Sequence record: OZ035743.1
Direction: 5' to 3' (one strand)
DNA from: Phapecoctavirus DIJ07P1
DNA: 64,000 nucleotides
The notes under the pieces: model-generated
The model's database searches: none
What the model saw: only the letters and a program-made list of their open reading frames with translations
Told to the model about the DNA's origin: nothing
In this document: positions 2,074 to 54,495 of the stretch, in pieces
How positions within the stretch are numbered: position 1 is the first letter of the stretch
Layout: every line of letters begins with the position of its first letter
Translations under genes and position numbers: made by a program

Positions 2074-3840
2074 ATGTTTCCAATTCCAATATTTACTATT
2101 ATGACCAGCACTGGTGTCGTTCCTCTGCCAGCAGGTATTGTTAAAAAAGTAATCACTTTAGATTACCCAGATAATGCTGGTAATTCTAACAGCAGTTTAG
2201 CAATTTTGCTTAATGATGGTAGATTGTTTACTCAAGGCGCAAACCTTTTTGGTGAGATTGCAGATGGAACTCGTAGTGCACGATTCAATAATTTCCACTT
2301 AGCTTCTACTGTAGTAGCGGATGTGTTTACCGCAGATCGTTGTTTTGTTATTAAAACTAACAGTGGGGGATGGCAATATTCAGGATTGACAGCAGGGTTG
2401 GTAGGATCTATAGCAGCAGGTGGTACGGATGCATGTGTAACTACCTGGACCAGCTTTCCATCTGTAATAACAGGGACTATTTCTTTAGCCAATCTTAAAG
2501 AGGTTAAAGGAGGGTATAACAATACTCTCTGGTTAATGAATAGTGGTGTTCTTTATGGATCGGGTCAAAACACAGTGGGTAGTTTAGGTGCAAGCACTAC
2601 TAACGAAGTTTCTACTCCTCGTCAGATAACAAGCGCAGCAGTTGCTTTTGATGCAGGTTACAACCAATGCTCTTATGTCAACAATGTGGGAACCTTGCGT
2701 GTTTGTGGAGCTAGTAAAGGTTTAGCAGGTAATAATAACACAACAACAGCTTTTGTCAATGCCACAATATCCGCTACTGAAACAGTGTATGTCAAAGATT
2801 ACATCAATACAGTTTCCCAGACAATAGTTGTAGGAGATACCTCCGGTGGCACGGGTACAGTAAACTACTTATATGTTAGATCTAATACAGAAACAACCTA
2901 CACTAAACTGGATACCTTTGCAGCAGGTTTCTCAACATGGAAGTTTCCACCAAGCCGCCACTCTTTTTTCGTTGGGATCAATAATTCCTTGTGGGCTATT
3001 GGTAAGAACTACACTGCAAACTTAGGTTTGGGGTATGATTCTGCGAGCGGAGATCCACTCCAAGTGGGAAAACCAGTTAAACCTGAAGGAGTGGGTTCTT
3101 GGGATATAAACAAGCTCACAAGCGTTCATACGCTGAATATGGATGTTACTAACCAATTAGGTTATCAAGGAACCTTTTTCGTTTATAATGGAGATATGTA
3201 TTATTCCGGTATTTGGAAAGATGGGAAAGCCTCGTATCTGTTCAATAGTGGTCTAAACTATAATAAATTCACACCAATAGCAAGCTCCGTGATTACGGGC
3301 GATATTCTGGCAACTGGCTTAACTACAGATTCTTTAGGAATTTGTATTGTAGGTGGAACTAAACAGTTGACACATTCTGTTAGCCCAGAAGGAGGTAAAC
3401 TTTTCAATATTAAATACACTTCTTCTGCCCCTGCAAACATGACAATATCATCTACTGGTTTAATGACTTTCCATGCAGAAGGTGGTTTTGATGCAGGTAT
3501 GACAGCCTTAAACGCTGAAGGAACAACTTTATCAGATACCTCTGGAGGATATGCTTCAACATTGAGTGTTTACACCCCTAGCTTATCTGCGATGGATGTA
3601 GGAACAACACAAACAATGGTAGCAGAAATAACGCCAACAGGAGCAGCAAGCTTACCTGGTATGGTTGTTGAGTATTTCTCTAATGACCCTACGGTAGCAA
3701 CAGTTGACCCCGTTACAGGCGTTATTACAGCGGTTGCTGATGGAGGTTGTCGTATCGGTTGTAGAGCAACTTATCAAGGTGTGGTAACTGCCGAAGATAG
3801 TTCTTATCTCACAGTGAATGCTGTGGTGATTATGATTTGA
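2074..3840 (+). CDS. Tail fibre / structural protein with C-terminal Ig-like (Big_2-like) region
   Basis: 588-aa ORF, Gly/Thr/Ser/Asn-rich; C-terminal segment resembles bacterial Ig-like domain; RBS GGAGGG upstream. Confidence 0.65.
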   Translation: MFPIPIFTIMTSTGVVPLPAGIVKKVITLDYPDNAGNSNSSLAILLNDGRLFTQGANLFGEIADGTRSARFNNFHLASTVVADVFTADRCFVIKTNSGGWQYSGLTAGLVGSIAAGGTDACVTTWTSFPSVITGTISLANLKEVKGGYNNTLWLMNSGVLYGSGQNTVGSLGASTTNEVSTPRQITSAAVAFDAGYNQCSYVNNVGTLRVCGASKGLAGNNNTTTAFVNATISATETVYVKDYINTVSQTIVVGDTSGGTGTVNYLYVRSNTETTYTKLDTFAAGFSTWKFPPSRHSFFVGINNSLWAIGKNYTANLGLGYDSASGDPLQVGKPVKPEGVGSWDINKLTSVHTLNMDVTNQLGYQGTFFVYNGDMYYSGIWKDGKASYLFNSGLNYNKFTPIASSVITGDILATGLTTDSLGICIVGGTKQLTHSVSPEGGKLFNIKYTSSAPANMTISSTGLMTFHAEGGFDAGMTALNAEGTTLSDTSGGYASTLSVYTPSLSAMDVGTTQTMVAEITPTGAASLPGMVVEYFSNDPTVATVDPVTGVITAVADGGCRIGCRATYQGVVTAEDSSYLTVNAVVIMI

Positions 3841-42746: not shown

Positions 42747-44207
42747 GTGCCAAAAATAGTCACTTGGGAACAATATAAAACAGATATAAAACAAGCTTAT
42801 CAAGGTAAGTCTTGGACTGTTGTAGATTATATTGAGCCGTGGAACGGCAATAAAACTAAACTTAGATGCATCTGTGCTCTGCATGGAGAATGGAAAACAA
42901 CAAGCATAAATACCGCTAAACTAGGGAGGGGTTGTCCAGAATGCGGTAGGGAGATTATAAGTAAAGCAGTATCTATAAACAAATCAAAAACCTGGGAGCA
43001 ATATAAAGAAGAAGTGCAAACCACTTACAATCAGGCAGGTAAGTTTTGGACTGTTACAGGATGGCACGGAGAATGGAAAGGATGGAATACTAAACTGGTT
43101 TGTTGTTGTGCTTTACATGGGGAGTGGAGGTCTACTTCTATATCTTCTGCGAAAAACGGGAGTGGATGCAGGAAGTGTATGGGAGAAGCAAACAGAGAAA
43201 GAACATCGATTGCATGGGAGAAACATAAAGAAGAAGTAGAAGAAGCTTATAAAGAAAAACCCTGGATTGTTAGAGGCTATGTGGAACCGTGGAACGGTTC
43301 CCGCACTAAGTTGATTTGTGAGTGTAAGGTTCATGGTCAATGGTGCACTACCACTGTAAACAGTGCTAAACAAGGGACTGGATGCTACAGTTGTCAAAGA
43401 GAAATGACGAAACAAAGGAATACAATGGAGGATAAACAACATGTTGAAGATTTTATAAAAGCTTGTCCTGATAATGTAGAGCGTAAATATTATCGTAGCG
43501 ATAGAGTAGATAGATTAGGTCGTCAGGTTTACTGGATTGTAGAATGTCCTATATGTGCAGAGGATGATTATTGTAAAGAAGGCTTATGCGATAATAAATT
43601 TGAGATGAAGATGAGTCATTTGAAAAGGGGTGGCCTTCCTTGCCGTTGTTCTAAATATTATCATTACACTCCTGAACAATGGGCCTACCGTATGACCAAA
43701 GCTTGCCAGGAACGAGGGGATCAATTTATAGGATTCATTGATAAGGTAAGCAATAACAGCAAGTTTAAATATCTATGTAGGGAGCATGGAGAGCAAACGA
43801 TCACACCTACCGATTATCTCAATGGGAAAGGTTGTCCAGGCTGTAAGAACAGAAATATGCAAGAATTTTACATCAATATTATTCTTGATGAGTACGGAGA
43901 AGACACGGGAGCTTACAAGTTGGGGATTGCAAAGGACAGTGATATCAGGATCAAAGGGCAGAATGCAAACAACAATTACTCTATGCGCCGTATAGCATTG
44001 TTCGATCTGCCGTCCTACCAAGCTTGCAGGGCGTTAGAGAGTAAGCTAAAGTCTAAGACTGATCAGATTCTACCGTCTATTGGCTGTGTAGAACGCTTGC
44101 ACATGAAAGATGGTCATAGTGAAACCTTCCTGCGCGAGGATTTGGCTATCGTCTTAAGTGCTATCAACCAAGCAGGTGGAATAATGAGAGAGGAGGAAAC
44201 ATGTTAG
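42747..44207 (+). CDS. Zinc-ribbon tandem-repeat protein with C-terminal GIY-YIG-like region
   Basis: 486 aa; four tandem ~75-aa repeats (W..YK...W.V..Y.EPWNG..TKL.C.C..HGEW.TTS.N.AK.G.GC..C); C-terminal EFYINIIL...GAYKLGIA. Confidence 0.7.
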   Translation: MPKIVTWEQYKTDIKQAYQGKSWTVVDYIEPWNGNKTKLRCICALHGEWKTTSINTAKLGRGCPECGREIISKAVSINKSKTWEQYKEEVQTTYNQAGKFWTVTGWHGEWKGWNTKLVCCCALHGEWRSTSISSAKNGSGCRKCMGEANRERTSIAWEKHKEEVEEAYKEKPWIVRGYVEPWNGSRTKLICECKVHGQWCTTTVNSAKQGTGCYSCQREMTKQRNTMEDKQHVEDFIKACPDNVERKYYRSDRVDRLGRQVYWIVECPICAEDDYCKEGLCDNKFEMKMSHLKRGGLPCRCSKYYHYTPEQWAYRMTKACQERGDQFIGFIDKVSNNSKFKYLCREHGEQTITPTDYLNGKGCPGCKNRNMQEFYINIILDEYGEDTGAYKLGIAKDSDIRIKGQNANNNYSMRRIALFDLPSYQACRALESKLKSKTDQILPSIGCVERLHMKDGHSETFLREDLAIVLSAINQAGGIMREEETC

Positions 44208-44566
44208 TTGACGTTCAAATTATGCGCAACGAAAGAATGGACTTCTTTGAAGCAGTAGAGAAACATCTGATCAGATGGGACTATGAATTTGTTCCTGCTG
44301 GATGTGGACCAGTAGAGCATTTAGCGGAAGACGACGATGTATACATGATCATTCGTCAAGTGTACCAGACAGACCAGTGTGAAGAAACTCCCGAACTGAT
44401 TTTGTTTGAGTGTAAAGATCTTGCAAAATATTTTGACTATGGCGGAAAAGAGGGTCATAATCTCTCCAGATACAATAAACGTCTACTTATCTTAGACTAC
44501 ATGCGGAACAACAAACACAAACTCATCGACGCAGACGCAGTTTATGGCTACTGGTGGATGGACTAA
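44201..44566 (+). CDS. Hypothetical protein
   Basis: 121-aa ORF. Confidence 0.55.
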   Translation: MLVDVQIMRNERMDFFEAVEKHLIRWDYEFVPAGCGPVEHLAEDDDVYMIIRQVYQTDQCEETPELILFECKDLAKYFDYGGKEGHNLSRYNKRLLILDYMRNNKHKLIDADAVYGYWWMD

Positions 44567-44579
44567 CAAAGGAGAAACT

Positions 44580-44759
44580 ATGGCACGTTTAGCAGATCAT
44601 GAAATCTTTAAACCTATTCTGAACCACTATGATGAACTTAAAGCAGTGTTGGATTGTTATAGAGAGGATGAAGAACGTTTGGAAGTCAATCTTAAGATAG
44701 TTCTGATGAAAGCTTTTCAAGACGGGCAAGCTAAAGTTTTAGAAGGCATGAAAAAATGA
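44580..44759 (+). CDS. Hypothetical small protein
   Basis: Start set at Met after GGAGAAA RBS. Confidence 0.45.
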   Translation: MARLADHEIFKPILNHYDELKAVLDCYREDEERLEVNLKIVLMKAFQDGQAKVLEGMKK

Positions 44760-45298
44760 GAATAACTGATGAATATGTATTCTTCTTTTCACATAAAGAT
44801 GTGTTTAGTAATTGGTATATTGCACCCTTTACAGAAACTGAACCAGGTTACAATGAGACTTTCTGTTGTGTTGAGCAATATATGATGTGGCGTAAGGCTT
44901 TGCTGTTCAAGGATCATGCGATTGCAGCAGCTATCCTTGATCACTCAACTATACGTGACAACGAGAGGAAACAAGCATACTACAAACGTATGGGTCGAGC
45001 GGTATCTGGTTTTAATAATGATATGTGGGAAGAGAACCGTGAGCGTATTGTTATGCGAGGCTTATGCTTGAAATATGTACAGAATCCAGATTTGTATGCA
45101 GACTTACACCTTTACCAATACAAAACGTTTGTTGAAGCAAGTCCTTACGATAAGGTTTACGGTATTGGAATGGGAATGTATGAACCAGGGGTGCTAAACC
45201 CTGCTACCTGGAAAGGGCAGAATCTTTTAGGCAAATATCATAATAAACTGATCGAAATACTTTTCCCAGACAAAATACCGCAAAGACGATATTTGTGA
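44756..45298 (+). CDS. NADAR-domain (YbiA-like, DUF1768) protein
   Basis: 180 aa; VFFFSHKDVFSNWY...CCVEQYMMWRKALLF parallels E. coli YbiA INFYS...FSNF...SEHYFQAQKF. Confidence 0.65.
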   Translation: MRITDEYVFFFSHKDVFSNWYIAPFTETEPGYNETFCCVEQYMMWRKALLFKDHAIAAAILDHSTIRDNERKQAYYKRMGRAVSGFNNDMWEENRERIVMRGLCLKYVQNPDLYADLHLYQYKTFVEASPYDKVYGIGMGMYEPGVLNPATWKGQNLLGKYHNKLIEILFPDKIPQRRYL

Positions 45299-45353: not shown

Positions 45354-45380
45354 AGGCTCCTACAGCACCGTAGAGAGCCT
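45354..45380 (+). terminator. Rho-independent terminator
   Basis: aggctc-ctacagcaccgtagag-agcct hairpin followed by gttattttgt. Confidence 0.65.
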
Positions 45381-45540
45381 GTTATTTTGTCCTATACAAA
45401 CCCTTGTCTTTTTCAGTTTGCATCACTAGGATTCGATCTGAGTGGGTTCCTGAAGGTTTACCAATAAGATTAAAGGTTATATCAAATTCCCACTATCTTT
45501 TATCTCAAAAATCCCTCAAATTATTTAAACTTTTTAAGAA

Positions 45541-45717
45541 TTTACAAAAATGAAAGTACAAAAGCAAAATTTAAAGTTTAGGAAAATTATCTTAAAATGT
45601 TAGATACAAAACAAAACTCAAAAGTCAAGGAAAATTTTAAAAATTTTGCGCGCCCACAGTATTTAAAGTTTTTTTGCTTTTACAAAAATGAAAGTACAAA
45701 AGCAAAATTTAAAGTTT
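45541..45717. repeat. 40-bp direct repeat pair in AT-rich intergenic region
   Basis: tttacaaaaatgaaagtacaaaagcaaaatttaaagttta at 45541..45580 and 45678..45717. Confidence 0.8.
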
Positions 45718-45740
45718 ACAAAAATTTTTATGCAGGTGAA

Positions 45741-45846
45741 AATGAGAAGAGTTCTCATATGGAAATGCAAATGATAATGATTCGCATTTAAGTTTATAAA
45801 TGAGATTGATTCTTATTTAATAAGGTAAATGACAATCATTCTCATT
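45741..45846. promoter_or_regulatory. Four tandem ~19-bp palindromes resembling the Fur box
   Basis: aatgagaagagttctcat; aatgataatgattcgcatt; aatgagattgattcttatt; aatgacaatcattctcatt at ~28-bp spacing; last copy matches GATAATGATAATCATTATC at 14/16 aligned positions. Confidence 0.45.
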
Positions 45847-46106
45847 TAGAGAATGACGCGCAGGGGCGGTGTTTGTCTCGCGCTCCCGTGTCCCCTCGCC
45901 ATGTAATAAGAATAACAGATCCAGCCAGGAAAGCAAGCGATTATTTTATCTTTACATTTCTTTACAAATATATAGCACCCAGCCTACCGGCGATCAACCT
46001 TCCAACCAGTGCCCCCTGGTATGTTAGCCCCGCCTTTACGCCGTGGGGTGGCGCTTCCTCTTCTGTATGTAAAACAGTATAAGCCCGATCCCTGGGCTTG
46101 TCAAGA

Positions 46107-46373
46107 TTATTTTTTGTTTTCTTGCCAGGATAGGACACCTAACCAAAAATACATATCGCCCCGCGCCCCTGGTGGTATCTTGCTTTCCCCGCCGCCACTG
46201 CAAGCCCATAGATAACCATTTGCGAACGTATCAAAATGATCTATCTCTTCCACCTTATGATCGCCCAGGTTGAGAACGGTTTCAACCTTTAAGCCCGTTG
46301 CGCTTGCTACCTGGTGCACCGTGCCGCCTTGCCAGCCCAATGAGTGCATAAGGTGTAATGTAGTATTTGTCAT
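46107..46373 (-). CDS. Hypothetical protein in GC-rich island
   Basis: 88-aa ORF; competing ORFs on both strands; weak RBS. Confidence 0.35.
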   Translation of the reverse strand: MTNTTLHLMHSLGWQGGTVHQVASATGLKVETVLNLGDHKVEEIDHFDTFANGYLWACSGGGESKIPPGARGDMYFWLGVLSWQENKK

Positions 46374-46482
46374 GATATCGCCCTTTCTTTGTTGTGCGCC
46401 CTGGTTGGCGCGGTAGAAAGATAATAGCCCTTTTCTTTATATATAGCAAGCAAAAAGAAAATAAAAAAGATTGAAAAATGGT

Positions 46483-46540
46483 TGACGTTAACCAGGCGGC
46501 GGCGTAGTATTCATCTTGTAGGGCGGCAATGGTGCCGCTC
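46483..46540 (+). promoter_or_regulatory. Promoter-leader cassette 1
   Basis: TTGACG-spacer-TAGTAT then tagGGCGGCAATGGTGCCGCtc leader hairpin. Confidence 0.6.
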
Positions 46541-46559
46541 ACTATTTGGAGTTAAGATC

Positions 46560-46763: not shown

Positions 46764-46823
46764 TTGACAACAAACAACAACCTGATAAGATGTATCACAT
46801 AGGGCGGCGGAATGGTCCACCGC
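46764..46823 (+). promoter_or_regulatory. Promoter-leader cassette 2
   Basis: TTGACA-16-TAAGAT-gtatcacat-aGGGCGGCGGAATGGTCCACCGC; then cacaacagaagagagattatcatc-ATG. Confidence 0.7.
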
Positions 46824-46848
46824 TCACAACAGAAGAGAGATTATCATC

Positions 46849-47124: not shown

Positions 47125-47180
47125 TTGACATTAACGAATAATTTGTTAATATGTTACATAAAGCGGGAATAGTTCCCGCT
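47125..47180 (+). promoter_or_regulatory. Promoter-leader cassette 3
   Basis: TTGACA-16-TAATAT then GCGGGAATAGTTCCCGC hairpin. Confidence 0.65.
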
Positions 47181-47197
47181 ATTTGTAAGGTGGTAGA

Positions 47198-47455: not shown

Positions 47456-48014
47456 TATGGGCCGCGAATATGTGATCCAGTCTTGGGTAAAACATGAAGC
47501 AGATGATCCGCGCATCATTCCCGATCATCTTATCGATGAATCCACGGGATATAGTGGTGAGCAAATAGGTAACAGATTAGCACGTAGTAACGGCAACGTA
47601 AAAGCGCGTTATGTGCGCCCTGGTTGGCTGGCAAATGGTAACGCTGATTTATCCAGTGCGGAAGATGCGAGCGACGGCGCGAAAGATAATCCTTTGTACA
47701 AAGTTGATCCAGCTTTTCGTGTCCTGGATGAATACCCCAGCAAGATAGCGGCGCTCGATCAGGCCCTGGAAAGTAAGCGCATCACCTGGACCGCTTACAA
47801 CATGGCAAAAAACGTACTTGATGGTAAATTGATTCAAGCTGAAAGAAAATTAGCCAAAATTGCAGCCATAGCCCAGGAGGAAGACGAGGAGACAACGGAA
47901 GAGGAAGAGTACGAAGAGATCCCGCCGTTGTTGTGTGTTGATGCTTTTCCTGATTATCAGCCGACAGAGGAAGAAAAAAGGATCGCACTAGAAAACTTTG
48001 AAAATAGTCTTTGA
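47448..48014 (+). CDS. Hypothetical acidic protein
   Basis: 188-aa ORF co-transcribed with previous; start 47448 or 47456. Confidence 0.6.
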   Translation: MVNMGREYVIQSWVKHEADDPRIIPDHLIDESTGYSGEQIGNRLARSNGNVKARYVRPGWLANGNADLSSAEDASDGAKDNPLYKVDPAFRVLDEYPSKIAALDQALESKRITWTAYNMAKNVLDGKLIQAERKLAKIAAIAQEEDEETTEEEEYEEIPPLLCVDAFPDYQPTEEEKRIALENFENSL

Positions 48015-48068
48015 CATATCGCCGCCACTGGCATAATATTTACCACGTAGGGCGGCAATGGTGCCGCT
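48012..48068 (+). promoter_or_regulatory. Promoter-leader cassette 4
   Basis: TTGACA-16-CATAAT then GCGGCAATGGTGCCGC hairpin. Confidence 0.65.
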
Positions 48069-48096
48069 CATAGTGAAATTATGCAAGAGGCTTACA

Positions 48097-48192
48097 ATGA
48101 TTAATAAAGAAAATAGCTTGACGGTTGGAACGATTAACGCTATCATTCTAGCCGTTCCATTTTGGGTTGTAGTAGCGGCTATTATTTTCTAA
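48097..48192 (+). CDS. 31-aa hydrophobic peptide
   Basis: MINKENSLTVGTINAIILAVPFWVVVAAIIF read manually; RBS AAGAGG; only ORF after cassette 4. Confidence 0.4.
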   Translation: MINKENSLTVGTINAIILAVPFWVVVAAIIF

Positions 48193-52828: not shown

Positions 52829-52966
52829 GGTGCGTACTATGAAAACAACAGACATTATCAAAGAGATCGCCCTTGCCGCTGACGTTGAGATCGAGGAAGT
52901 GATCGCGCTCAACCTTACAGAAAACGATCTACTCAATCTATGAAGCGTTATAATTGACAACAAAAC

Positions 52967-52993
52967 AAGGGCGCACCAAGCGCCCTTTCTTTT
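52967..52993 (+). terminator. Rho-independent terminator (copy 2, near-identical to 51723..51749)
   Basis: agggcgcaccaagcgccct followed by ttcttttt. Confidence 0.75.
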
Positions 52994-52994
52994 T

Positions 52995-54495
52995 GCCCGA
53001 ACAATGTTGATAGCTTTCGCCTATGAAAAACCGACACAGAACAAAACTGAATAAATCGCGGTATCGAGCTAATCAACCAGCAAACGAATAACCATACCTC
53101 CCAGGGTTACAGGCTGTTAGAGAGCCATTTAGAGCGGTTAAAATCGATCAACAACCAACAACAAACCATCAAAAACACCCTTTTACCTCCTTTCTAGTGC
53201 AATGATAACCATTATCATCTACCCATGATTATCTATGCAATATAAGCGCATAATTATAATGTTGATAATAGTTCGCAACAACTAACCAACAAACAACATA
53301 AAACAATAAGCAAACTAATCATAATCAAAGGAATAATAGCAAGATGATTGATAACGACAAACAATCAAACCATGATGAATACTAAGCAAGATAACGATAA
53401 CACGACAAAACAACCAACTAACGAACAATAACAAACGAAACCATTAAAATAATAACTATTAGCAAAATAGTGCATGAATGAAATCATTACAAAACGAATC
53501 ATTCACAGAGTCATCATTAGCACGCTATGCCGGACACATAGCGAGCTAATAATAAGCCAACTACACCCCAACAATCATAACCATCGGTGACGGTTATTTC
53601 TTGTTACTGCGTAGCTTGCAATAATTGCAAGCGTAATGACGCTTACACTTATTGCGCTGGCTTATTATTAGCATTATATGTAATTACCAAGATCATAACA
53701 TTAGCGCAATAACAATAGTCATTGTGATAATTACAAGATGAGATCATTAGCAAGATGAATAATTGCACGTAGCAACATGAGCGAATAGCGACAGGTTGCA
53801 TAGTGTGCACATAGTGTATAAACATACAAGAAAATAAAGGCTAATCTTTTGGGGGCGAATACTATCGCGTAGCGATATGTTGAGCACCTTCTCTTAAACG
53901 TAAATAAAATCAGAAAATTCTTGATTTATTTTGGCTTTTATGTTAATAAACGTTTAAATAATAATCATTCTCATATAAATAATAGTCTGCTTGTCATGAG
54001 CGGCATTAGTTGACATTGTTCCGTCATATGATGAAGTTGCCAAGCCATTGATAAATAAGTGTTTGTGTGATTTATAATCAGGTGGCCCACCTTGTCGCTA
54101 TGTTGGCATGAGCCTTGCATAAGTCATTGAATACGAATGATAATTATTCTCATTCGCATGATATTTGGGAATTGTCGCTGCGTGGACCTGACGGCCCGAA
54201 AATTCGCGTTAAGCACTTCTTACGTATGCGCCATGATTTTTGCCATATGATATTGATTCTATTAGATATTCTTGCCATTATTGCCATGAAACAGGGTGTG
54301 TCGAAATAATTGCTCCCCGTAGATATTTTGGGTTACTTTTTATACAAGAGTGGGGTGTCAAAAATAATCGGTATATATGGGATAATTGATAGGAATCCCC
54401 TATGATAATTCGATTGTAATTCCCTAAGATTGATCGTATGATGTTGGTGATTGATGATTGCCATGAAAGATGGCTAACGATGAGAGGAGATTGTC
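52995..54495. other. A/C-rich, strand-asymmetric non-coding region (~1.5 kb)
   Basis: No convincing ORF; plus strand dominated by A and C with recurring CAAGATGA / GATAACGA / ATCATTAGC words. Confidence 0.6.
53957..54157. promoter_or_regulatory. Fur-box-like palindromes (second locus)
   Basis: aataataatcattctcat (53957..53974) and cgaatgataattattctcattcg (54135..54157); same motif family as 45741..45846. Confidence 0.45.

Follow-up and report, generated by a model that had tools for sequence, protein, structure and literature searches.

A small conserved gene and an undescribed non-coding unit, possibly a replication-origin or control region, in Phapecoctavirus DIJ07P1 and its relatives

The primary origin of phage T7 is composed of the tandem promoters phi1.1A and phi1.1B followed by an AT-rich region, and the transcripts that start there prime the T7 DNA polymerase. 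The oriE origin of T4 is associated with the transcript RNAE and the small genes repEA and repEB, and the lambda origin carries four palindromic iterons beside an AT-rich region and is activated by transcription. Binding sites of the regulator Fur are described either by the 19-base pair (bp) Fur box GATAATGATAATCATTATC or by the 7-1-7 consensus TGATAATnATTATCA (TGATAAT-n-ATTATCA). Here, we describe a locus of Phapecoctavirus DIJ07P1 (sequence record OZ035743.1), analysed within a stretch of 64,000 nucleotides (nt; hereafter the window), that resembles each of these systems in some respects. It is centred on a guanine-cytosine (GC)-rich island at 45850-46400, which consists of an 88-codon gene on the minus strand and the GC-rich head of an adjoining non-coding unit of ~800 bp, both read leftwards and antisense to the early genes on either side. 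The feature is thus real and partly ordinary, namely a small conserved gene, and the remainder is an undescribed, strongly conserved non-coding unit.

Read leftwards, the unit consists of a promoter (P1) with a hairpin in its spacer, a structured RNA element (RNA1), a second promoter (P2) followed by a hairpin, one to five palindromes, iterons and a terminator, an order that supports an origin layout. From our point of view, the unit may tentatively be regarded as a replication-origin or control region that is driven by transcription. It shares with the T7 primary origin the two tandem promoters that aim into an AT-rich stretch, and the replisome of the phages is T7-like; unlike in T7, however, the promoters appear to be of the host sigma-70 type, and a conserved structured RNA of ~92 nt, palindromic operators and long iterons precede the AT-rich DNA. 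In common with T4 oriE and the lambda origin, a small gene adjoins the site, a transcript from an early promoter would enter it, and four regular palindromes (29 bp) are followed by AT-rich DNA. In contrast to these origins, the palindromes match the site of host Fur and no known phage initiator, many relatives have one palindrome, and about half of the lineages lack the 88-codon gene.

Over 1.3 kb around the island, the window shares 99.7% identity with Escherichia phages that belong to the genus Phapecoctavirus (phAPEC8/ESCO13 group, Stephanstirmvirinae). An earlier, sequence-only reading of the window had described a GC-rich island with overlapping open reading frames (ORFs) on both strands, and both observations hold. 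The GC content of 45850-46400 amounts to 49.7% compared to a window mean of 39.1% (standard deviation 2.5%, 551-nt windows), which corresponds to the 99.97th percentile and is practically maximal (the peak within the 64 kb is 50.1%), and the adjoining segment 45300-45849 shows, with 28%, the lowest value of the whole window. On its two strands, the island is overlapped by at least 11 ORFs of at least 30 amino acids (aa); since such abundance is expected in GC-rich DNA, it provides no evidence of coding. The existing GenBank annotation is inconsistent, as phAPEC8 has a 114-aa plus-strand ORF, Ro121lw a 69-aa plus-strand ORF together with the 88-aa minus-strand ORF, WPEC1 a string of tiny ORFs, and many other records are blank at the locus. 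An ARAGORN scan of the window for tRNA and tmRNA genes found none.

The right half of the island, 46373..46107(-), is a genuine protein-coding gene, as its homologues, substitution pattern and predicted fold demonstrate. Its 88-aa product matches phrog_19316, a PHROG without assigned function, over the full length (2e-59), and 21 homologues of 86-93 aa were found with identities down to 48%. The sequence-only reading had named a protein homologue clearly identifying one ORF as an observation that would refute its interpretation, and it is this half, and not the non-coding left one, for which homologues exist. The N-terminal motif TLHLMHSLGWQGGTVHQVASATGL and the C-terminal FWLGV of the product correspond to positions that are invariant among the homologues (T-L-x-L-M-x-x-L-x-W-x-G-G-T-V-H-Q-V-A-x-x-T-G-L and FW-x-G, respectively). 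In a substitution test on six distinct 88-codon alleles, 180 of the 432 codon differences were synonymous in the gene's own frame (180 synonymous/252 nonsynonymous), whereas four other frames gave only 33-50 synonymous changes among ~420 differences (33-50/375-382) and the antisense frame that shares the third positions gave 119/289. The frame of the gene is, in addition, the sole one without internal stops. AlphaFold predicts an all-alpha protein of five helices with a mean predicted local distance difference test score (pLDDT) of 93.4; searches of Pfam, NCBIfam, PDB and BFVD did not yield a function.

The statement that none of the ORFs has a strong ribosome-binding site is correct for the others but fails for this gene, which carries AAAGGG 7 nt ahead of its ATG, with GAGGA or AAAGGA at the same place in relatives, and is preceded by a promoter-like site. 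This putative sigma-70 promoter, P0 (46421..46449, minus strand; TTGCTA-17-TATTAT), scores 9/12 in a consensus scan, recurs in all eight aligned relatives with the -35 CTTGCT and a -10 of the form TAtnAT, and lies back-to-back with a plus-strand early promoter at 46482-46510. Between P0 and the ribosome-binding site, the 5' untranslated region (5'UTR) contains a hairpin (GCGCC-AACCAG-GGCGC, 46396..46411, minus strand), read from the sequence and retained in seven of eight relatives; L018 has CGCC/GGCG. The gene is located directly upstream of the unit in about half of the lineages and, with one exception, is missing in the others. In a CR9-like phage (L009:2733-3249) it is inverted relative to the RNA unit, so that the two are divergent and not in tandem. 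Because the gene is inverted or missing in about half of the lineages, the non-coding unit represents the more widely conserved part of the locus.

The left half of the island, 46106..45850, does not code. In eight relatives aligned over the locus, the ~230 nt past the stop codon of the gene are nearly invariant, while the gene itself shows ordinary third-position drift; the left half, which hardly varies among the 47 distinct copies and the 233 phages in GenBank, is hence conserved beyond the level of the gene. Among phages that are >95% identical, a G-run at 46015-46019 (within the H3 loop of RNA1) comprises 4, 5, 6 or 7 G and a C-run at 46045-46048 (within helix S2) 4 or 5 C, and more distant copies have additional insertions and deletions (indels) that are not multiples of three. 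Due to these frame-shifting indels, every ORF across the left half is broken in close relatives, including 45873-46082, 45869-46027 and 46009-46215 on the plus strand and 45962-46138 and 46036-46209 on the minus strand. None of these ORFs has a homologue or a family match, and they are artefacts of GC-richness. The homopolymer runs represent a slippage hot spot within an otherwise invariant element. Three smaller candidates were rejected, namely an 18-codon ORF at 45902, the ATG of which is ATA in many lineages, a mini-ORF within RNA1 (GUG-GAU-CGC-CGG-UAG), which loses its stop in several lineages, and an ATG-TAA at 45957, which is TTG or ACG elsewhere. That the plus-strand ORFs in GenBank, phAPEC8 gp257 (114 aa) and Ro121lw_00257 (69 aa), code for proteins is hardly credible: their equivalents at 45873-46082 and 45871-46212 are open in the window and they are annotated in some records, but they lack any family or homologue, vary in length and frame between near-identical genomes through 1-3-nt indels, overlap the conserved minus-strand promoter and RNA element, and show no synonymous enrichment where they overlap the 88-codon gene. 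We therefore consider them spurious. The proposal that the island is a structured RNA rather than protein-coding thus applies to 46106..45850, which is non-coding, conserved and contains covarying pairs, and does not apply to 46373..46107(-).

The unit begins with P1 (46076..46104, minus strand), a near-consensus sigma-70-like promoter (TTGACA-17-TATACT) that scores 11/12 in the consensus scan, the best value of the region. It starts 3 nt after the stop codon of the gene, and its predicted transcription start is at ~46070. The arrangement of -35, 17-18 nt and -10 is recognisable in 45 of the 47 distinct copies; the most common -35 variants are TTGACA (19), TTGCAA (11) and TTGACG (9), those of the -10 are TATACT (14) and TATATT (11), and in an alignment of 30 sequences T and G of the -35 as well as A2 and T6 of the -10 are invariant. 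The spacer contains a GC hairpin with a terminator-like call (AAGCCC-AGGGATC-GGGCTT, 46099..46081, minus strand), composed of a 6-bp stem with four GC pairs and the tail AUACUGUUUU and located 8 nt past the stop codon. A hairpin in or around the spacer was found in 43 of 45 copies, with a mean minimum free energy of -12.2 compared to -6.2 kcal/mol for shuffled sequences, and its stems differ by lineage (AAGCCC/GGGCTT, GCCCCG/CGGGGC, GGCCCGG/CTGGGCT, GGCCCC/GGGGCC, CAGGGGC/GCTCCTG and GCCAGGC/GCCTGGT), often with GNRA loops and with extensive compensatory change. The simplest reading is that it would act as terminator of the 88-codon gene, with the U-tract doubling as the -10 of the next promoter; the hairpin is also kept where no same-strand gene lies upstream. 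Like the promoter-early stem-loop (PeSL) cassettes of T4-type phages, in which a GC stem-loop is coupled to an early sigma-70 promoter, P1 would form a terminator/promoter junction between small early genes, but, unlike in PeSL, the stem-loop lies inside the -35/-10 spacer and its T-rich tail is the -10 element. Hairpins within promoter spacers, a 'terminator inside promoter', also occur at other early promoters of relatives (L009:2941-2975, 3262-3292 and 3655-3688). A literature search for transcripts of this phage group found no paper.

Just downstream of the predicted P1 start lies RNA1 (45975..46066, minus strand), a nearly invariant structured element of ~92 nt that was delineated by alignment and covariation. 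The covariance and structure check proposed earlier was carried out with two alignments, one of 40 sequences made with MAFFT and one of 47 sequences based on a covariance model, and three helices were tested. Standard pairs occupy 90% of the helix cells, compared to 17-49% if the 3' partners are slid by 1-3 columns, and the covariation score of 0.18 exceeds that of column shuffles (0.07), none of 500 of which reaches 0.18. The variable hairpin H3 (46023-46016/46009-46003) contains four pairs with double changes (AU 34/GC 13; AU 31/GC 4; CG 44/GC 3; AU 24/CG 8/GC 2) and a loop that varies in length and sequence. Helix S2 (46047-46044/46031-46028) has one cleanly covarying pair (CG 37/AU 9), and a terminal pair is A.G in the main clade and AU, CG or GC in ten others; an initial register of this helix (columns 20-23/37-40) was discarded as it fitted more poorly than columns 21-24/37-40. 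The GGCG at 46042-46039 is complementary to two segments: with the upstream CGCC (46053-46050) it would form an H-type pseudoknot with S2, and with the CGCC 50 nt downstream (45992-45989) it would close the whole domain. Since both partners are invariant, covariation cannot choose between these pairings. A few one-sided changes in them give G.U, and the G.U-compatible changes fit the minus strand, i.e. the strand that P1 would transcribe.

As the 241-nt minus-strand fold shows no extra stability over shuffled sequences (z -0.17), thermodynamics is uninformative and the case for an RNA1 structure rests on covariation; RNAalifold on the MAFFT alignment recovered no more than a part of H3 and the long-range helix, which is invariant. 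The covariance model of the element, R1, detects one copy in the window (90.3 bits, E 5e-28). In all copies it scores 77-107 bits, with exactly one match per contig; unrelated phages with distant homologues of the 88-aa protein gave no match. Rfam gave no matches in the whole window at gathering thresholds; at E<=10, 45700-46200 yielded only chance matches on the AT-rich palindromes and none on the minus strand of 45850-46110. The 47 distinct copies, the covariation of its helices and the lack of an Rfam match make RNA1 a well-supported candidate for a new family of RNAs. Given its invariance, RNA1 probably interacts with a conserved host component or depends on a specific fold of the emerging transcript. 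The idea of a G-rich R-loop or G-quadruplex was dropped, as the GC skew of RNA1 is merely +0.13, i.e. mildly G-rich.

Downstream of RNA1, two TGTAAAGA repeats, spaced 10 bp apart in an A/T-rich stretch (45949..45966, minus strand) and in most lineages conserved as TTTGTAAAGAAnTGTAAAGA, directly precede the -35 of P2 and could represent an UP element or an activator site. P2 (45909..45936, minus strand) was read from the sequence as a sigma-70-like promoter with TTGCTT, a 16-nt spacer and the extended -10 TGtTATTCT; it is not listed by a simple promoter scan, and its predicted start is at ~45902-45904. Across lineages P2 keeps a fixed position, and a -35 of cTTGc/a and a -10 of TG-n-TAttAT/TATATT are conserved. 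It is followed by the RNA2 hairpin region (45853..45902, minus strand), in which the nearly invariant GAGACAAACACC sits within a GC-rich stem (AGGGG/CCCCT) with ATGGCG...CGTCAT as its closing helix. The region contains gcaggggcggtgtttgtctcgcgctcccgtgtcccctcgcc, which the sequence-only reading had correctly quoted for 45860-45900. In the alignment, the closing helix shifts from ATGGCG/CGTCAT to ATAGCG/CGCTAT, and the inner pairings are ambiguous. No GC-rich intrinsic terminator was found after RNA1 or RNA2, and only a weak AT-rich hairpin is present at 45857-45835.

A search for repeats and inverted repeats identified four 21-bp palindromes with a period of 29 bp and the consensus AAATGAGAATnATTCTCATTT at 45740..45847 (45740, 45769, 45798 and 45827). 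Their consensus across lineages is AAATGAGAATGATTATCATTC, and the core TGAGAAT-G-ATTATCA is one position off the 7-1-7 consensus of Fur. Two of the four palindromes in the window, TGATAATGATTCGCA at 45772 and TGACAATCATTCTCA at 45830, have 2 mismatches each to this consensus, and the window as a whole contains 26 matches with at most 3 mismatches compared to 8.7 expected. In nearly all lineages the sites show 0-3 mismatches out of 14, with perfect sites (TGATAATGATTATCA) in L040 and L064. Relatives have one to five palindromes at the same offset with the 29-bp spacing kept, the first one at a fixed distance of 147-158 nt after the RNA1 anchor and, in several genera, with further ones behind it; different palindromes are found here in a soil-derived clade (L067, L079 and L110). 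Since the phages of this group encode no Fur homologue, host Fur would be the simplest candidate to bind these sites. The similarity to Fur-regulated enterobacterial promoters extends to the 0-3 mismatches in nearly every lineage and to sites of a second region (see below) that overlap -10 elements, as in classical Fur repression. Unlike at such promoters, the palindromes studied here form a phased 29-bp array at ~+50 from P2, and in relatives a third promoter follows them at a distance of ~60 nt, as estimated by eye.

The second region, 52960-54495, is likewise gene-free over ~1.5 kb and contains no ORF >64 aa. Matches to the palindrome consensus lie at 53203 (TGATAACCATTATCA), 53959 and 54138 (TGATAATTATTCTCA), and those at 53959 and 54138 overlap promoter-like -10 elements of the plus strand. 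The palindromes are the sole similarity between the two gene-free regions, and 52960-54495 is a possible alternative origin or regulatory region.

Beyond the palindromes of the studied locus follows an AT-rich block (45517..45726, 22-28% GC) with lineage-specific direct repeats, which in the window consist of two 72-nt copies at 88% identity and three copies of the 32-nt unit TACAAAAGCAAAATTTAAAGTTT. In relatives, three units of 64-74 bp lie in tandem at this place; each of them contains an A5-6T5-6 tract and AATACGATCT together with either GATCGAGAAC or CCTCAAGT, and the third promoter often precedes them just past the last palindrome. The combination of tandem direct repeats with an easily melted AT-rich segment in a gene-free region is as expected of an origin. 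The unit ends at a GC hairpin with T-runs on both sides (45354..45380), which was read from the sequence and is called a putative terminator by ARNold at the phAPEC8 equivalent. It would serve the plus-strand NADAR gene and is likely also the end point of the leftward transcripts from P1 and P2, if it acts bidirectionally.

Pattern scans of IMG/VR and metagenomes yielded 47 distinct copies of the unit, located on phage contigs of ~120-155 kb wherever the length suffices to tell, and blastn found it in 233 GenBank phage records, none of which annotates an RNA. The hosts of the latter comprise Escherichia, Klebsiella, Salmonella, Cronobacter, Pectobacterium (phiTE), Erwinia, Serratia, Pantoea and Raoultella, and the gene-free unit of ~800 bp is common to the ~145-kb myoviruses of the phAPEC8, phi92, PVP-SE1, CR3, phiTE and Klebsiella types. 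In every lineage the unit is antisense to the genes on both sides, followed by 700-800 gene-free nt. It is absent from one-per-species bacterial genomes, which gave only chance matches in GC-rich metagenome-assembled genomes, and from 5,426 E. coli genomes, and we consequently rejected host mimicry or a prophage origin. The idea that the island is a recently acquired foreign fragment was prompted by a GC content 10 points above that of the genome, and transcription against the local direction would also suit it. Yet the unit occurs in the same context, as a single, equally GC-rich copy, in the 233 phage records of many genera, it was not found in the bacterial genomes, and its GC-richness follows from the invariant RNA and hairpin sequences, so that a recent acquisition appears very improbable. 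Two of the records, MG065650 ('Campylobacter phage B15') and OR584014 ('Pseudomonas phage PsgM04F'), are 96% identical to the E. coli phage studied here across the locus, and their host labels look doubtful.

If the unit functions as an origin or control region, host RNA polymerase would fire from P1 and P2 right after infection, and transcription would cross the palindromes into the A/T-tract iterons, where it could open the duplex, supply a primer, or both. This transcription would be gated by a dimeric protein bound to the palindromes, for which host Fur is the simplest candidate. We infer each of these elements, i.e. the transcripts, the start of replication at this site and the binding of Fur, from the sequence. 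According to annotation, rV5-type phages possess a T7-like (family-A) DNA polymerase as well as a primase-helicase, and a transcription-primed origin would be consistent with this. The replication origin of this phage group is described as undefined (PMC3606486), and a literature search for a described origin, non-coding RNA or Fur box in the group found nothing relevant. Several points weigh against this proposal. No initiator gene is tied to the iterons, the linked 88-codon gene is absent in about half of the loci, and the neighbouring 270-aa and NADAR genes contain no replication domains. There is no GC-skew switch at the site, which is explained by the fact that both flanks are transcribed in the same way, and the small skew of RNA1 (+0.13) makes an argument based on a G-rich R-loop weak. 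The near-invariance of RNA1 exceeds what a primer or activator would need and fits an RNA that binds a conserved partner, and many lineages carry a single palindrome, which is operator-like and not origin-like, with the third promoter just downstream. Also, the gene-free region 52960-54495 with the same palindromes could equally be the origin.

One could alternatively imagine an early non-coding RNA locus, in which the RNAs from P1 and P2 (RNA1, RNA2 or a single transcript of ~700 nt ending at 45354-45380) act in trans on a conserved host component, be it as decoy, sponge, inhibitor or anti-defence RNA, and the palindromes and repeats only regulate or terminate transcription. We regard this as the main rival to the origin reading, though as somewhat less probable. 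The single-stranded segments of RNA1 (GGCGnAAAGG, CUAAC and GGAAGGUGGAUCGCCGGUAG) are almost invariant across phages whose proteins are 40-50% identical, as expected from binding to a conserved host partner; both promoters appear strong and of the host type, and the G.U-compatible changes are consistent with a transcribed strand. There is also a precedent in that the relative phiTE employs a non-coding RNA against ToxIN, at a different locus (PMC3475682). The phiTE escape locus lies near 100 kb compared to 39.7 kb for the unit, and as no ToxI-like 36-nt repeat (<=3 mismatches) was found in the phiTE copy (L013), a direct link to the pseudo-ToxI was discarded. On the other hand, the lack of an intrinsic terminator after RNA1 and RNA2 other than the weak hairpin at 45857-45835, the absence of an Hfq-type 3' end, the fold that is no stabler than shuffles, and the lack of similarity to Rfam families or E. 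coli DNA speak against a trans-acting RNA, and the conserved block of iterons and A/T tracts would be left unexplained.

RNA1 could also act in cis as a leader, be it as a riboswitch-like sensor or as a put-like modifier of RNA polymerase, and decide whether transcription from P1 reads through past P2, the bound palindromes and the repeats. Such a role would be compatible with the origin or control region as well as with a trans-acting RNA. RNA1 starts within a few nt of the predicted transcription start and combines a conserved core with a variable peripheral hairpin, and the two mutually exclusive GGCG pairings give it a switch-like shape. As such, it resembles the put RNAs of HK022 and riboswitch leaders, which are compact conserved folds immediately past an early promoter with a variable peripheral stem. 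In contrast to these, however, RNA1 shows no sequence or model similarity, not even to an Rfam riboswitch at E<=10; there is neither a downstream ORF to regulate nor a terminator to override, and no terminator/antiterminator pair was identified. Since both alternative pairings are invariant, the switch is moreover without covariation support, and we regard a leader function as unlikely.

The genes next to the unit differ between relatives. Upstream, the plus strand (42747-45298) carries one gene for a 486-aa protein built of repeated zinc-ribbon-like units and another for a protein with a NADAR domain (3e-35; TIGR02464 riboflavin-intermediate N-glycosidase, 4e-33). Relatives have a shorter 328-334-aa gene with CapR/DUF723 Pfam matches at the position of the former, and in some of them an unrelated 270-aa gene takes the place of the NADAR gene; the non-coding unit stays. 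On the other side, three plus-strand early promoters (TTGACG/TTGACA, 16-17-nt spacers) are located at 46482-46542, 46764-46827 and 47125-47185, and the 5'UTR downstream of each contains a short GC stem-loop (TAGGGCGGC...CCGCTCAC; AAAGCGGGAATAGTTCCCGCT). The peptide MSGTIAAL, repeated in minus-strand pseudo-ORFs (46282..46542 and 47988..48146), suggests another copy near 48.1 kb.

In phage rV5 (L161; NC_011041), the R1 model gives a weak match (12 bits, E 0.2; TGGATCGCCAGTGGTGCG). It lies in the published 2.6-kb 'non-coding' box (L161:16014-18619; NC_011041 104013-106618) and is followed by the palindromes AATGATAACTATTCTCA and GTGATAGGTATTCTCATTCAAC; six GTRAACAGT iterons are found upstream of it, and the published skew change at 104425-105475 falls inside the box. 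The resemblance is suggestive, but with a weak match of 12 bits, we do not claim the unit for Vequintavirus.

Overall, the present study corrects the annotation of a locus that is blank or inconsistent in 233 GenBank genomes and the real content of which is a small minus-strand gene and a non-coding unit. It further provides a testable origin or control candidate for phages that are considered for therapy, such as phAPEC8, phi92, PVP-SE1, CR3, phiTE and the Klebsiella Mydovirus-like phages. The conserved positions of the near-consensus Fur boxes suggest that iron sensing by the host may feed into the lytic programme of a virulent phage, a link of which we found no description for such phages in the searchable literature. 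One could speculate even further that RNA1 represents a new class of phage structured RNA, composed of a pseudoknot and a hairpin and invariant across several genera, which engages a conserved host machine and, together with the operator array for host Fur, makes the onset of phage DNA replication or of early transcription depend on the iron status of the host. We consider this combination improbable; if true, it would be the first iron-status link of this kind for a strictly lytic phage.

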